Shown here: positions 3,603-8,018 of the stretch, one piece after another | Numbering within the stretch: the first letter of the stretch is position 1 | How the letters are laid out: the number at the start of each line of letters is the position of its first letter | Position numbers and translations under genes: made by a program | Origin: a virus | Taxonomy: Duplodnaviria > Heunggongvirae > Uroviricota > Caudoviricetes | Direction: 5' to 3' (one strand) | IMG/VR virus record: IMGVR_UViG_2541047698_000010 | Length of the DNA: 15,255 nucleotides | Notes under the pieces: generated by a model | Seen by the model: only the letters and a program-made list of their open reading frames with translations | Databases searched by the model: none | Told to the model about the DNA's origin: nothing

Positions 3603-3965
3603 TTAACGACCTGCTGCGCGGAGTTTTCCGTCAGGTTCACCGGCAAGAGTCAGTAATTGTCCCTGGTCTTCCTGCAGAATAGTCAGGCGACCACCGCGAT
3701 TGACATACATCGGCGTTTCGGTGGTGTCTTCTTCGGAAATTTTCCCGCGGTTAGTTGGGCGAACATATGAGAGTTTGTGTTTGATTTTCACACGGTTCTC
3801 ATCAAACGGTTCGATTTCCAGATTGAGTGAGACCTTCCCTTTGGTTTTCGTGTTCATCACACCGGAAGCGACCTCACTGAGAACTGCGCCGATTTTGGTT
3901 TCAAATACGCCGCCGTCCAGCTCCCCGATAAATGCCTGCACATCAGTACTGCGTTCGCTAGCCAT
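3603..3965 (-). CDS. yfdP: Hypothetical early protein (YfdP-like, 120 aa)
   Basis: Start chosen at MASERSTDVQ (ATG 3965) with a GAGGAG Shine-Dalgarno. The ORF-track N-terminal extension into the GC-rich region is Arg/Cys/Gly-rich and looks non-coding. Confidence 0.6.
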   Translation of the reverse strand: MASERSTDVQAFIGELDGGVFETKIGAVLSEVASGVMNTKTKGKVSLNLEIEPFDENRVKIKHKLSYVRPTNRGKISEEDTTETPMYVNRGGRLTILQEDQGQLLTLAGEPDGKLRAAGR

Positions 3966-4014
3966 TTTGCTGCTCCTCATCATATCGACCCTGCAAGGTC
4001 GGTTGGTTTCTCCA

Positions 4015-4101
4015 CAAAACAGAGAAGAACACCTGCGGTGGCAGCCGCCCGGATGGATTGGGTTATGAGCCCGTCGTCCGGTGATGCTCTTCTCTGTTTT
4101 G
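4015..4101. repeat. Perfect inverted repeat: 14-bp arms (4015-4028 / 4088-4101) around a 59-nt GC-rich loop
   Basis: CAAAACAGAGAAGA at 4015-4028 is the exact reverse complement of 4088-4101. An inner CACC/GGTG pair (4030-4033 / 4080-4083) extends the stem. Confidence 0.7.
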
Positions 4102-4102
4102 C

Positions 4103-4148
4103 AAAAAAGGACGGTACCAGCCGGAAGCAAGGGTACAAACTGGTACCG
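4103..4148 (-). terminator. Candidate intrinsic terminator on the leftward transcript (tL-like), about 140 nt upstream of yfdP
   Basis: 9-bp perfect stem CGGTACCAG (4112-4120) / CTGGTACCG (4140-4148) with a 19-nt loop. On the minus strand it is followed by UCCUUUUUUGC (plus A-run 4103-4108). Confidence 0.5.
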
Positions 4149-4149
4149 C

Positions 4150-4367
4150 CAGGACTACACACAGCATAAAGTTGTGGTGCCGGGTGCCTCCCGGTGCCTG
4201 GCGAAGGTTGCACACCAGGCGGGTGGGTATCCACAGAAGGTCGACTGTCAGCCTCAACCTTAACCCGCGTGCGCTGAGCCGCATTCACCACAACGCTAAG
4301 GATTCTCTCTGGTTGAAAATACTTAGCTGTTATGTGCCTGCTTTTAGCCACATCAGGCGAGGTGGAC
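4150..4367. other. GC-rich, highly structured non-coding block (candidate cis-acting RNA element or ncRNA)
   Basis: GC content clearly above the flanks. Several nested inverted repeats (GCCTGG/CCAGGC at about 4197-4220; AAGGTTG/CAACCTT at 4204-4210 / 4255-4261; GTGG/CCAC at 4223-4234). The ORFs here are Arg/Pro/Gly-rich with no Shine-Dalgarno. Confidence 0.35.
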
Positions 4368-4435
4368 CTGGTTATTCCCCAACAACAAGGATTCGGTTAA
4401 TCTGGATATCCCCAACAACAATAAGAGTATTCAAT
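4368..4435 (+). repeat. Two tandem 34-bp direct repeats (core CTGG-TAT-CCCCAACAACAA) abutting the start of the plus-strand gene
   Basis: 4368-4401 ctggttattccccaacaacaaggattcggttaat and 4402-4435 ctggatatccccaacaacaataagagtattcaat share a 12-nt identical core. Confidence 0.65.
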
Positions 4436-4459
4436 GTGATCGCTGAATTAACGGCAGCA

Positions 4460-4951
4460 ATGACGGCTATTCGTGAAACAGCCCAGATTGCAAAACTAAT
4501 GAACGAGGCAAAAACTCAAGCTGAAGTAAATGCGGCTATTGGTGAGCTGAACTCAAAGCTTGCGTCTATTCAGCGCGAATGCGTGTCTCTCGTTGAACTG
4601 GTGGGCTCTTATCAAGAAATAAATGCTTCTCTCAAAGCTAAAATTGCAGAATTCGAAAACTTTGAGGCTCAGACGGAAGGCTATATCCTTAACCAACTTG
4701 AGTCGGGTACTTTTGTATACTCGAAGGAGGTAATCGTGAACGGTGGCAGCATAACCATGCATCTTTGCCCAAAATGTTTTGGACAAAAGATAGTATCGAT
4801 ACTTCAACCATTCCCGGTTAGCGAAGATGAGCTTTTTCATAAAAGCAGGTGCCTCCACTGTGAAAATAAGTTTCTGATGAATAAAAATCCGGATTACGTA
4901 TCGCCTCCATCCATTGAGGAGTTGTCCAGAAAACTTAACGGCAATCTGTAG
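4460..4951 (+). CDS. Hypothetical coiled-coil / C4 zinc-ribbon protein (about 163 aa), convergent with cI and antisense to the pL operon
   Basis: N-terminal 75 aa are Ala/Glu/Lys/Leu-rich with heptad-like periodicity. C-terminus has CPKC-x24-CLHC. Own plus-strand terminator follows. Alternative GTG start at 4436. The ORF-track extension back to 4172 is GC-rich junk. Confidence 0.6.
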   Translation: MTAIRETAQIAKLMNEAKTQAEVNAAIGELNSKLASIQRECVSLVELVGSYQEINASLKAKIAEFENFEAQTEGYILNQLESGTFVYSKEVIVNGGSITMHLCPKCFGQKIVSILQPFPVSEDELFHKSRCLHCENKFLMNKNPDYVSPPSIEELSRKLNGNL

Positions 4952-4976
4952 ATTGCTACTGTTGTGGATATCCAGA

Positions 4977-4988
4977 TTGTTAAAGAGC
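4977..4988 (-). promoter_or_regulatory. boxA-like antitermination element (GCUCUUUAACAA) on the pL transcript
   Basis: Minus-strand sequence GCTCTTTAACAA is a 12/12 match to the rrn boxA core, about 100 nt downstream of the predicted pL start. A 6-bp hairpin (4941-4956) lies 20 nt further 3'. Confidence 0.4.
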
Positions 4989-4990
4989 TA

Positions 4991-5014
4991 AGCGTCCTGT
5001 AGGGCGCTTTTTTG
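4991..5014 (+). terminator. Intrinsic terminator of the plus-strand zinc-ribbon gene
   Basis: Stem AGCGTCC (4991-4997) / GGGCGCT (5002-5008) with one G-U pair, loop TGTA, followed by TTTTTTG. Confidence 0.6.
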
Positions 5015-5081
5015 TTGCTAATGAATCATCCTAGACTTCATATGCTCCAGGCGGCTACTTCGTGGGCGTCCTGCCTGTTTG

Positions 5082-5126
5082 TTGTTTCTCCTGGGTACAT
5101 TATGTATCCCAAAAGTACATTGTCAA
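5082..5126 (-). promoter_or_regulatory. Candidate pL promoter with OL operators
   Basis: Minus strand reads TTGACA (plus 5121-5126), a 16-17 nt spacer, then CATAAT (plus 5098-5104). Operator-type palindrome ATGTA-N9-TACAT at 5102-5120 and a degenerate copy TTGTT-N9-TACAT at 5082-5100, same geometry as the OR sites. Confidence 0.5.
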
Positions 5127-5130
5127 GTAT

Positions 5131-5153
5131 AAAAAAACCTGCCGAAGCAGGTT
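5131..5153 (-). terminator. Intrinsic terminator downstream of the repressor gene
   Basis: Stem ACCTGC (5137-5142) / GCAGGT (5147-5152), loop CGAA, followed on the minus strand by a 7-U tract (plus A-run 5131-5137). It lies 13 nt past the cI stop. Confidence 0.6.
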
Positions 5154-5165
5154 CATAAACATTGA

Positions 5166-5840
5166 TTAGGCTTTGATTTTGTATCTTCTTGGTTTTCCTG
5201 AGAAAATCACAGTTCCAATTATAGAGCAATTACCGTTGATCTTAATGTAAGGCTCAGGCCAGTTTGGGTTTAACGCTTTGAGATAACGCTGTGTCCCATC
5301 TTCTATCAACCTTTTGAAGGTGGTTTCACCTGTATCGTGCATCAATGCAATAACGTCGTCACCGTGGCAGGCAGGTACTTCAGGATCGACAAAAATCATG
5401 TCTCCCGGGCGGTACTCATCAATCATTGAATCACCTATCACCCGCAAGATATAAGTCATTTCCCCACAGGGTACAGGGCAGGGATACGTTTCTGCTGTGC
5501 TCAAATCAACCTCAGAATATCCAACTTCTTTCCATGCTCCGGCCTGTACCCATGATATGACAGGGACTAATGTGATTTGTTTATTAGTGATTGAAACATC
5601 AGGTTTTTTTGTGATGTTCGTTGTCTGGTGTTCTTGATCGAGCCATCCGACAGGCAGGTCGAAACATTTTTCGATGTGTCGTGCCATGCTGTCACCGATA
5701 TTTTTAGTAGCACCATCTCCCATAAACCTGCTGGTCTGGGTTGGCTCGCGATCAATCATAGTGGCAAAGGAAGAATTCCCGCCAACACCATCTCTCAGTT
5801 TTCTGGCGTTAGACCGCCGGATGTCATGGATTGTTTTCAT
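5166..5840 (-). CDS. cI: cI-like prophage repressor (N-terminal HTH, C-terminal S24 LexA-type autopeptidase domain)
   Basis: 224 aa. C-terminal region has the S24 serine (..VIGDSM..) and a downstream lysine (..TFKRL..). Divergent from the cro-like gene, with palindromic operators between them. Confidence 0.9.
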   Translation of the reverse strand: MKTIHDIRRSNARKLRDGVGGNSSFATMIDREPTQTSRFMGDGATKNIGDSMARHIEKCFDLPVGWLDQEHQTTNITKKPDVSITNKQITLVPVISWVQAGAWKEVGYSEVDLSTAETYPCPVPCGEMTYILRVIGDSMIDEYRPGDMIFVDPEVPACHGDDVIALMHDTGETTFKRLIEDGTQRYLKALNPNWPEPYIKINGNCSIIGTVIFSGKPRRYKIKA

Positions 5841-5846
5841 AACGAA

Positions 5847-5925
5847 ATTAAAACCCTTGTACCGTTAAGGTACAAGTATCTTGAAGGTTCATTTCAATCA
5901 TGTAATATGTATACCGGAGGTACAT
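5847..5925. promoter_or_regulatory. Divergent pRM / pR promoters with OR operators
   Basis: OR1 TTGTA-N9-TACAA at 5857-5875 (perfect palindrome CTTGTACCGTTAAGGTACAAG). OR2 ATGTA-N9-TACAT at 5907-5925. pR is TTGAAG (5881-5886), 16 nt spacer, TAATAT (5903-5908). Candidate pRM on the minus strand (TTGTAC / TTTAAT) would start at or next to the cI ATG. Confidence 0.55.
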
Positions 5926-7076: not shown

Positions 7077-8018
7077 ATGAGCACTAAATTAACCGGCTAT
7101 GTATGGGATGGTTGCGCAGCGTCAGGCATGAAATTATCCAGCGTGGCAATTATGGCCCGCCTGGCTGATTTCAGTAATGACGAAGGTGTGTGCTGGCCAT
7201 CGATTGAAACCATTGCCCGCCAGATTGGCGCGGGGATGAGTACAGTCAGAACGGCTATCGCACGGCTGGAAGCAGAAGGCTGGTTAACGCGTAAGGCGCG
7301 TCGCCAGGGTAACCGCAATGCGTCGAATGTTTATCAGCTTAACGTTGCGAAGCTTCAGGCTGCGGCATTTTCTCAACTGTCAGATTCTGACCCGTCAAAA
7401 TCTGACGCATCAAAATCTGACCCGTCAAAATTTGATGCGTCGAAATCTGGCAAAAAAGCGGGTTTTCACCCGTCAGAATCTGGCGGGGATCCGTCAGTAA
7501 AATCAAAACATGATCCGTCAGATAAAAAACCTTCTCGTCCGGACGCTTCGCAACCGGACACGCAGACGGCTGAACAGGATTTTTTAACTCGCCATCCTGA
7601 TGCGGTTGTATTCAGCCCTAAAAAGCGCCAGTGGGGGACGCAGGATGATTTGACCTGCGCACAGTGGCTCTGGAAAAAAATCATCGCCCTGTACGAGCAG
7701 GCTGCCGAATGTGACGGCGAGGTGGTTCGTCCCAAAGAACCGAACTGGACAGCCTGGGCAAACGAAATTCGCCTGATGTGTGTGCAGGATGGTCGTACTC
7801 ACAAACAAATCTGCGAGATGTACAGCCGCGTCAGCCGCGATCCGTTCTGGTGCCGTAACGTGCTCAGCCCGTCGAAGCTGCGGGAAAAATGGGATGAGCT
7901 TTCCCTGCGCTTATCGCCGTCCGTAAGCACGTACACCGAAAAACGCGAAGACGCGTACTTCAAAGCCAGTTACGACAACGTGGACTACAGCCAGATCCCG
8001 GCAGGATTCAGGGGGTAA
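7077..8018 (+). CDS. Replication initiator, O-like (N-terminal winged-helix DNA-binding domain, repeat-encoded linker, C-terminal domain)
   Basis: 313 aa. N-terminus (..CWPSIETIARQIGAGMSTVRTAIARLEAEGWL..) is a replication-initiator winged helix. The central SDPSKSDASKSDPSKFDASKS linker is encoded by the iteron array. Confidence 0.75.
   Translation: MSTKLTGYVWDGCAASGMKLSSVAIMARLADFSNDEGVCWPSIETIARQIGAGMSTVRTAIARLEAEGWLTRKARRQGNRNASNVYQLNVAKLQAAAFSQLSDSDPSKSDASKSDPSKFDASKSGKKAGFHPSESGGDPSVKSKHDPSDKKPSRPDASQPDTQTAEQDFLTRHPDAVVFSPKKRQWGTQDDLTCAQWLWKKIIALYEQAAECDGEVVRPKEPNWTAWANEIRLMCVQDGRTHKQICEMYSRVSRDPFWCRNVLSPSKLREKWDELSLRLSPSVSTYTEKREDAYFKASYDNVDYSQIPAGFRG
7386..7450. repeat. Iteron-like tandem repeats (about 15-bp period, four to five copies) inside the O-like gene; candidate origin of replication
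   Basis: tctgacccgtcaaaa / tctgacgcatcaaaa / tctgacccgtcaaaa / tttgatgcgtcgaaa at 7386-7445. Further CCGTCAG copies and an A-rich stretch extend to about 7530. Confidence 0.55.

Follow-up and report, generated by a model that had tools for sequence, protein, structure and literature searches.

Genomic context of the repeats

The window, by which we mean the whole 15,255-nt stretch of DNA analysed here (IMG/VR record IMGVR_UViG_2541047698_000010), shares 99.8% identity with Escherichia phage PhiR49_1, a lambdoid phage of the SfV type from which the annotation of cI and cro was taken. The integrase and the early-left genes, up to yfdP, are encoded on the minus strand and are followed by a variable slot, cI (5166-5840, minus strand), and cro. 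The slot holds a plus-strand gene at 4436-4951, here called the cargo gene, which is directly preceded by two tandem direct repeats at 4368-4435. Homology with SfV ends at 4365 and resumes at 5020, and homology with SfIV extends to 4419 and resumes at 4957, giving mosaic breakpoints at 4365/4366 and 4419/4420. These borders indicate that the repeats form the left edge of an exchangeable cassette.

The cargo gene points against a strong predicted promoter that we assign to pL (TTGACA-16-CATAAT, 5099-5126, minus strand), with 11 of the 12 consensus positions matched in a promoter scan, which would drive a transcript antisense to the cargo gene. An operator-like palindrome at 5101-5120 overlaps this promoter and resembles a palindrome at 5906-5925, between cI and cro. 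The promoter scan found no separate minus-strand promoter for a small RNA inside the cargo gene. On the plus strand, the cargo transcript is predicted to end at an intrinsic terminator (4990-5015), which consists of a stem (4990-5009) and a T run. The regulatory module described below adjoins an STnc100-like RNA that ends in a terminator and whose Rfam score is below threshold; an Rfam scan of 3900-5300 (E <= 10) gave no family over 4328-4440, with this neighbouring sub-threshold STnc100 match as the only one.

Two diverged copies in front of the start codon

Unit 1 of the repeat (4368-4401, plus strand) reads CTGGTTATTCCCCAACAACAAGGATTCGGTTAAT, and unit 2 (4402-4435, plus strand) reads CTGGATATCCCCAACAACAATAAGAGTATTCAAT. 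Both contain the exact 13-mer TCCCCAACAACAA, at 4376-4388 and 4409-4421, with the two copies lying 33 nt apart. The period is 33 nt when measured on this core and 34 nt when measured on the leading CTGG, which points to one indel between the units. The original prediction had described tandem direct repeats with an identical core at this place; the core is present, its actual length being 13 nt, one base more than had been given.

In a global alignment, the two units share 26 identities in 36 columns, as compared to 17.7 +/- 2.2 for control pairs of adjacent 34-mers elsewhere in the window, where at least 26 identities were reached by 2 of 3000 pairs. First-order Markov shuffling of the window gave a close exact repeat of at least 13 nt in 9 of 500 runs, and the pair, being two diverged copies, is absent from the output of Tandem Repeats Finder. 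The repeat pair is real, with within-window statistics that are moderate; the decisive support comes from dozens of related loci with the same two-unit layout. Counting the copies in relatives had been proposed as a check, and there are two units per phage in dozens of loci, with cores 32-36 nt apart.

The repeats adjoin the GTG at 4436, as had been predicted, and this is the true start codon: the ATG of a Klebsiella-phage homologue aligns there, and the N-termini of the proteins align. Most database homologues of the cargo protein are 171 aa long, which agrees with a start at this GTG.

The cargo gene and its relation to Rip1

The cargo gene (4436-4951, plus strand; PHROG 1244) encodes a protein of 171 aa with a long coiled coil and a CxxC...CxxC zinc ribbon, for which searches against Pfam and PADLOC returned no match. 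The AF2 model of the protein has a pLDDT of 89.8, and its top Foldseek match is 9oox (E 8e-7, probability 1.0), the structure of phage HK446 Rip1 in complex with the T6 small terminase, solved by cryo-EM. A profile of the cargo family searched against PDB sequences matched Rip1 with E 1.9e-19 over residues 5-152, and BLASTP against HK446_037 gave 27% identity with E 4e-11. On these comparisons, the cargo protein is a homologue of Rip1 (ring interacting pore 1), a prophage defence family, and the corresponding activity is predicted. Rip1 itself is a prophage anti-phage protein that forms pores on meeting the rings of the small terminase or the portal (PMC13434031, on Patel et al. 2026).

Homology with the sieB-promoter/sas module

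A sensitive search with 4300-4440 matched many phages, with matches that end at 4365 or 4419. In ev207, lambda, and P22, the segment that matches directly precedes sieB, a superinfection-exclusion gene that points against pL. In BLAST, the homology links to the P22/lambda segment run through F1055 and Klebsiella phages. The genomic slot is the same as in sieB loci, namely upstream of a gene opposing pL and between the early-left genes and the immunity region. A conserved 30-nt block at 4336-4365 (GCCTGCTTTTAGCCACATCAGGCGAGGTGG; minus strand), which contains the nested repeats GCCTG/CAGGC and CCAC/GTGG, precedes the units in more than 100 IMG/VR contigs as well as in P22, lambda, ev207, SfV, and SfIV.

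A covariance model, built from the lambda/P22-type and other core classes and excluding the core class of the window, matched 4332-4427 on the minus strand over the full model length with 61.1 bits (E about 1e-15; the next match had E = 3). This match indicates that the repeats belong to the family of sieB-promoter/sas modules. In the P22 RefSeq record, the sieB promoter extends from the first CCCCTACAG to a region that we read as the -10 element (TAAACT), the sieB RNA starts at the A immediately before the second CCCCTACAG, and esc starts internally, 72 nt into the gene. On the opposite strand of P22, RNA-seq revealed sas, a 127-nt minus-strand RNA whose reverse complement spans the block, both units, and the sieB start codon (PMC13397905). 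By pairing with the sieB mRNA, sas shifts translation from SieB to the shorter Esc, which spares P22 from its own exclusion (PMC12197685, PMC7067206).

In the predicted sas-like RNA of the window, the block at 4336-4365 would form the 3' domain. In five loci, a variant of the block replaces CCAC/GTGG by the compensatory pair CCGC/GCGG, and other variants break the pairing; for the idea of a pseudoknot in the block, there is one compensatory variant against several breaking ones. Both the block and an inverted copy of unit 2 at 4960-4978, described below, had been omitted from the original prediction.

As for the target gene, the cargo protein carries no SieB domain. The in-frame ATG at 4460 was considered as an internal start of the Esc kind and rejected, since the corresponding M9 is not conserved among homologues. 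Because the cargo is unrelated to SieB and ATG 4460 is not conserved, the translational switch between SieB and Esc has no visible counterpart here, and membership in the family is confined to the regulatory module and does not extend to the sieB/esc system. By homology, the repeats and the block are a local variant of the sieB-promoter/sas cassette in front of a Rip1-type gene.

Predicted promoter and leader on the plus strand

When the window is aligned with P22, the TAATCT at 4398-4403 (plus strand), between the two units, falls on the part of the annotated sieB promoter that we read as the -10 element, and the core of unit 1 takes the -35 position of the predicted cargo promoter. The -10 position is a perfect TATAAT in the close relatives L047, L048, and L050. 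In the window itself, both the -10 (TAATCT) and the -35 elements are weak and were not called by a consensus promoter scan, so the assignment of 4398-4403 is made by homology. Transcription is predicted to start at about 4408-4410.

The P22-aligned leader would be about 27 nt long, with the core of unit 2 as the first 12 or so nucleotides of the predicted mRNA. A weak Shine-Dalgarno sequence, AAGAG, is located at 4423-4427, inside unit 2. Homology between loci with different cargo genes stops directly after the core, at 4419/4420, which suggests that the shared module ends there and that each cargo gene supplies its own ribosome-binding site.

A covarying hairpin predicted on the minus strand

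By analogy with the 127-nt sas of P22, which also served to place its ends, the predicted sas-like antisense RNA of the window covers 4318-4440 (minus strand). Within it, unit 1 is predicted to form the hairpin 5'-CCUUGUUGUU-GGGG-AAUAACCAGG-3' (4367-4390, minus strand; loop at 4377-4380), in the segment that is the -35 region on the plus strand. Across 32 two-unit loci, RNAalifold predicted this hairpin on the minus strand only, with compensatory changes in all five of the five predicted pairs. In an ungapped table anchored on the C4/G4 loop, the G.U pairs of the minus strand correspond to A.C mismatches on the plus strand. In an alignment of 15 sequences of this hairpin, a pair near the loop is G.U in 12 of the 15, and standard pairs filled 91.5% of the cells on the minus strand as compared to 75.8% on the plus strand and 36-69% in slid controls. 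In the same alignment, 6 of the 11 pairs were changed on both sides, and none of the shuffles reached the observed score. The sequences used for covariation are interrelated, so that the figures for the strand bias, here and below, are not independent probabilities, and the direction of the bias is still consistent; the sequences were also partly chosen with a pattern that fixes the block. The asymmetry between G.U on the minus strand and A.C on the plus strand points to RNA rather than to duplex DNA.

The strand bias extends over the 40 nt after the block, where the minus strand folds better than the plus strand in 41 of 45 unique sequences (Wilcoxon 2e-7), with fold energies of -8.2 and -5.3 kcal/mol, respectively. 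The single-sequence fold of the minus strand of the window was unremarkable (z = +0.7), and unit 2 in the core class of the window has no hairpin comparable to the second hairpin of P22. In the unit 1 hairpin, the 5' arm together with the loop is identical to the direct antisense of the predicted mRNA 5' end. For the leader paired with the hairpin region, the predicted duplex energy is -22.9 kcal/mol, as compared to -7.2 kcal/mol for the hairpin alone.

Core classes and concerted change

At least five classes of core were found, CCCCTACAG, CCCCAACAACAA, TTCCACAGTCAA, CCCCAATGCAA, and CCCCCACAA, of which CCCCAACAACAA is the class of the window and CCCCTACAG is the core of P22 and lambda. Within any one phage, the two units have a common core, at the spacing given above. 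An Edwardsiella prophage, for example, has CCCCAACAGC in both units, and the loci L012 and L050 have the same linker and differ in both cores. The longest string shared by the two units of one phage averages 10.6 nt, as compared to 5.4 nt across classes.

The pairing between cores and genes is loose in both directions. The core of the window is found upstream of at least eight different genes, and the Rip1-like family stands behind three core classes, which argues against the cargo protein as the ligand of the repeats. In the collected loci, at least 26 unrelated protein clusters are located behind the module, and only SieB among them has a Pfam family. In Arsenophonus and Serratia, distant homologues retain a single unit next to the gene, and the block is missing.

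An inverted copy of unit 2 and a boxA-like site

A third, inverted copy of unit 2 is located at 4960-4978 on the minus strand (AAUCUGGAUAUCCACAACA), with 95% complementarity over 19 nt and one mismatch. It would be placed early in the pL transcript, is complementary to the sas-like region, and is predicted to form a duplex of -34 kcal/mol with it. The copy is also present in SfIV and Kati, and a diverged form occurs in Cedecea davisae. Pairing of the predicted mRNA 5' end with the 3' UTR was no better than in shuffles (-10.1 vs -8.2 +/- 2.7 kcal/mol).

A boxA-like sequence, GCUCUUUAACAA, lies at 4977-4988 on the minus strand and agrees with the E. coli rrn boxA, which we take to be TGCTCTTTAACAA, at 12 of 13 bases. 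A similar element was sought after cro and none was found. The inverted copy together with GCTCTTTAACAA was considered as a nutL site and rejected, because no matching boxA follows cro, SfV lacks the segment, and an N-like ORF is absent. The idea of an invertible or mobile cassette between the two arms of the 19-nt inverted repeat was rejected as well, since neither a recombinase nor a relative with the flipped orientation was found; the arms are better explained as copies of the module.

Proposed mechanism and alternatives

We propose that a two-strand sieB-promoter/sas cassette probably controls the prophage accessory gene that opposes the early-left operon. Behind the proposal stand the observations that the module is homologous to the sieB-sas segment and has its two-unit layout, that a hairpin covaries on one strand only, that both cores change in concert, and that the cargo is Rip1-like. 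That transcription of the cargo gene starts at unit 2 in this phage, that a minus-strand RNA is made and silences the gene, and that the hairpin has a part in this is presumed. In the lysogen, cI would repress pL, and a weak constitutive promoter within the repeats would express the Rip1-type protein. During lytic growth, the pL transcript would run antisense through the cargo gene, unit 2, unit 1, and the block, and its module part would accumulate as a sas-like RNA of about 105-127 nt, as the analogy with P22 suggests. In P22, sas reportedly arises from pL by processing, a point attributed to the 1993 work of Ranade and Poteete. The sas-like RNA would pair with the leader and the start of the cargo mRNA and block protein synthesis, and convergent transcription may add interference. 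The lytic phage would in this way escape its own exclusion gene, whose Rip1-type product might be triggered by the phage's own terminase rings.

This mechanism would also give a reason for the repeat itself, which would exist because the hairpin of unit 1 holds a second copy complementary to the mRNA 5' end. The hairpin, with its GGGG loop and its 5' arm UUGUUGUU, may act as a structured recognition element through a kissing or a toehold interaction. Since G.U pairs weaken the stem, the perfect 13-bp intermolecular duplex would be expected to win over the hairpin. As a second anti-leader site, the hairpin would explain the concerted change of the cores without any protein. The original prediction of a cis-regulatory role of the repeats for the plus-strand gene is retained, with a counteracting RNA as its best reading; the specific forms in which it had been put, namely a translation enhancer, binding sites for the zinc-ribbon protein, and an antitoxin array, fare worse and are taken up with the alternatives below.

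The minus-strand structures could also serve the early-left operon mainly as a signal for termination, pausing, or processing that, in the manner of tL1, marks the end of the immediate-early transcript, with the repeat being incidental. They do lie on the pL transcript, past a non-coding stretch and just before the STnc100-like RNA with its terminator, and both the minus-strand specificity of the hairpin conservation and the lack of a separate small-RNA promoter within the gene fit such a signal. However, neither the hairpin nor the block is followed by a U tract, the corresponding P22 RNA accumulates (PMC13397905) and is reported to act on sieB translation, and the match of the hairpin 5' arm and loop to the mRNA 5' end, which is kept in every core class, would be left unexplained; we consider this reading unlikely. 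It is quite unlikely that the cores are tandem DNA operators, at which a phage or host protein binds the motif at -35 and +1 and represses or activates the promoter. Identical 13-bp motifs one promoter length apart, at the -35 and at the start site, are what such a protein would use, and a concerted change of the motifs would be expected from a co-evolving regulator, yet the core class is linked neither to the cargo gene nor, in the flanks compared, to the left flank, no candidate regulator co-varies with it, and lambda and P22 have the same core though their repressor and antiterminator genes differ in names and annotations. Moreover, the G.U/A.C strand asymmetry of the inverted repeat in unit 1 is unexpected for recognition of duplex DNA. 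The suggestion that the zinc-ribbon protein itself binds the repeats is opposed by the same strand specificity of the hairpin and by the unlinked pairing of cores and genes, and the protein is of the Rip1 type, Rip1 being described as a pore former and not as a DNA-binding regulator (PMC13434031).

A role of the plus-strand leader alone, with the C/A-rich unit 2 as an unstructured enhancer of translation, an (ARN)n site for Hfq, or a target of the GcvB small RNA and with unit 1 as a leftover duplicate, is very improbable as the whole explanation. Unit 2 reads AAC AAC AAU AAG, that is (AAN)4, directly 5' of the Shine-Dalgarno sequence, and resembles the GcvB target consensus CACAACA and the ARN repeats that are bound by Hfq (PMC4104026); the distant homologues in Arsenophonus and Serratia, which keep one unit and no block, would also fit. 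But the conserved, covarying hairpin of unit 1 and the minus-strand bias would remain unexplained, and the other core classes are neither ARN nor CA repeats. The CA-rich translation enhancer that had been suggested is weakened as well, since only unit 2 would be part of the mRNA, with unit 1 at the -35 position by homology with P22, and classes such as CCCCTACAG and TTCCACAGTCAA are not CA repeats. An enhancer role for unit 2 cannot explain the repeat, and a role of the leader may add to the main explanation rather than replace it. Extremely improbable, finally, is a functionless recombination scar at a mosaic junction or a ToxI-like repeat RNA array, the latter having been raised in the original prediction as a faint resemblance. 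The mosaic breakpoints at 4365/4366 and 4419/4420 and the 33-34 nt period, which resembles that of ToxI repeats, speak for these ideas; the layout, however, is kept across genera with compensatory changes, there are two diverged copies only, the predicted start lies inside unit 2, and the copies would not be co-transcribed as an array. The Rip1-like cargo has no ToxN-like or other toxin domain in Pfam or PADLOC, and with the ToxI-like reading failing, the matching family is that of the cis-antisense RNA sas.

Distribution and significance

The element of the type seen in the window is present in 1423 of 5426 complete E. coli genomes, about a quarter, and the module also occurs in prophages of Shigella, Salmonella, Klebsiella, Cedecea, and Edwardsiella. 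Prophage defence genes need to be switched off, or tolerated, once their own prophage goes lytic, and to our knowledge few mechanisms are known that silence them during that cycle. It is possible, and we put it forward tentatively, that the module is a portable RNA switch which provides self-immunity for dozens of unrelated prophage defence genes, with the variable core as an address code. If so, unit 2 of the mRNA and the anti-core of the hairpin must match, and a phage would silence the resident exclusion gene only within the same core class. The core classes would then be specificity groups that result from an arms race between resident prophages and superinfecting relatives. In the case of the Rip1-type cargo, the protein would sense terminase or portal rings, and the RNA would keep it from killing the lytic cycle of its own prophage.

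If the mechanism of P22 sas is general, the slot would be a predictable place to look for new exclusion genes, the module would be a ready-made RNA antidote for each of them, and the core classes would offer a handle for specificity tests by compensatory mutations. For annotation, the stretch would be marked as a promoter and an antisense RNA instead of an anonymous intergenic repeat. The module itself is already known from P22 and lambda. In the literature searched, the original sas and Rip1 papers aside, we found no account of its spread to many cargo genes, of core classes with concerted change, of evidence for the minus-strand hairpin, or of a link to Rip1-type genes, and the novelty of these four points is provisional.

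Comparison with known systems

The closest relatives of the module are the sieB-sas loci of P22 and lambda. They share with the window a gene that opposes pL between the early-left genes and the N/cI side, a homologous 30-nt block, units about 33-34 nt apart with a -10 element, in the window a predicted one, between them and the second unit at the mRNA 5' end, likewise predicted for the window, and a predicted minus-strand hairpin with a GGGG loop in unit 1. In contrast, the core is CCCCAACAACAA here and CCCCTACAG there, the cargo of the window is a Rip1 homologue without a conserved Esc-like start, and no N gene lies between pL and the cargo; unlike in P22 sas, unit 2 of the window lacks a second hairpin. 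The Rip1 locus of HK446 has a homologous cargo in the same slot and the two-unit module with its block upstream, whereas its core is of the lambda/P22 type and its N gene is convergent with Rip1. Antisense-RNA regulation of Rip1 is not mentioned in the Rip1 literature that we searched, the original Rip1 paper aside.

Other prophage-borne RNAs show a more distant likeness. AgvB/AsxR and STnc100/PasD are small RNAs carried by prophages, and AgvB has the CACAACA motif that is also the GcvB target consensus, although AgvB and AsxR, which are found at the PR' moron site, differ in their conserved 3' domain (PMC4104026). Sponging of GcvB in the manner of AgvB was considered for the window and rejected, AgvB being a different element at the PR' site (PMC4104026). 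ToxI/ToxN resembles the module in the period of about 34 nt and in an RNA that neutralises a phage-exclusion gene. It differs in that the module has two diverged copies, an RNA proposed to come from the opposite strand, base pairing in place of protein binding, and no endoribonuclease toxin.

In mechanism, the proposed switch is nearest to the antisense systems RNA-OUT/RNA-IN of IS10, OOP/cII of lambda, and hok/sok, in which the loop of a structured antisense RNA meets the 5' end or leader of its target and blocks translation; OOP and sas are grouped together in the literature. The pairing of a loop with an mRNA 5' end that we propose for the unit 1 hairpin is like that of RNA-OUT with RNA-IN. 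Unlike in these systems, the antisense RNA of the module appears to hold a second copy of the anti-leader sequence, presented in a hairpin, and it probably comes from a long operon transcript instead of from a promoter of its own.

Conservation and variants of the repeat module

The 30-nt block that precedes the two repeat units (GCCTGCTTTTAGCCACATCAGGCGAGGTGG, 4336-4365) is retained with near base-for-base identity in more than 100 phage contigs, regardless of the sequence downstream of it. On the minus strand, this block could fold into an H-type pseudoknot, in which CCAC pairs with GUGG and GCCUG with CAGGC, and the third loop is A-rich. Among the sequence variants, CCGC/GCGG, found in 5 loci, is compensatory, and another four disrupt the pairing.

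A one-unit form of the module is present in several of the related loci collected for comparison (L002, L015, L016, L019, L032, and others). The motif TGnTATNCT, which looks like an extended -10 element, lies directly 3' of the block in these loci, with one hairpin after it. Covariation is seen in the hairpin stems (e.g., CCTTTTAAG/..AAAAGG, CTTGG/CCAAG, and GCTGG/CCAGC). The 3' arm of the hairpin overlaps AAGGA, the Shine-Dalgarno sequence of the cargo gene, the gene downstream of the module. At the start of the window's own cargo gene, which is Rip1-like, the GTG codon shares bases with an out-of-frame ATG at 4434. A TGA comes immediately after this ATG, so that ATGTGA (4434-4439) constitutes a one-codon ORF at the cargo ribosome-binding site.

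Distant Rip1-like homologues occur in Arsenophonus nasoniae (L132) and Serratia symbiotica (L136), where a single CCCCAACAACAA leader is located at about 1440-1500. Both loci have the same start context as the window, GAGTA..GTG, and both lack the block and unit 1, the first of the two repeat units. The CCCCAACAACAA core may originally have been the Rip1-like gene's own leader.

The cassette end and the early-left region

The right-hand end of the cassette is a trio of elements at 4960-5015: an inverted third copy of unit 2, the second repeat unit, at 4960-4978; a minus-strand boxA-like element at 4988-4977 that matches rrn boxA over 12 nt; and a terminator at 4990-5015. The same trio was found in SfIV, where a leftward gene follows it, in Kati, and, in a diverged form, in a prophage of Cedecea davisae.

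Two 20-bp palindromic sites that resemble each other, TATGTATCCCAAAAGTACAT (5101-5120), which overlaps the predicted pL promoter, and TATGTATACCGGAGGTACAT (5906-5925), between cI and cro, are probably repressor operators. Further along the window, a tandem repeat at 7386-7449 (15-nt unit TCTGACCCGTCAAAA, 4.3 copies, 81% matches) lies within the ORF that the phage PhiR49_1 annotation gives as replication protein O, and it looks like origin iterons.

No N-like ORF was found between the predicted pL and the early-left gene yfdP (4101-5100, minus strand), and over its first ~1 kb the early-left transcript appears non-coding. This stretch comprises the boxA-like element, sequence antisense to the cargo gene, the sas-like part, and an STnc100-like part with its terminator. 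The last of these, flanked on the pL transcript by the sas-like part and yfdP, matches Rfam STnc100 (RF02076) at 4101-4324 on the minus strand with 40.3 bits (E 6e-7), just under the gathering score of 47, and its 3' end consists of a hairpin and a U run (~4147-4101). The usual location of STnc100/PasD relatives is near Q.
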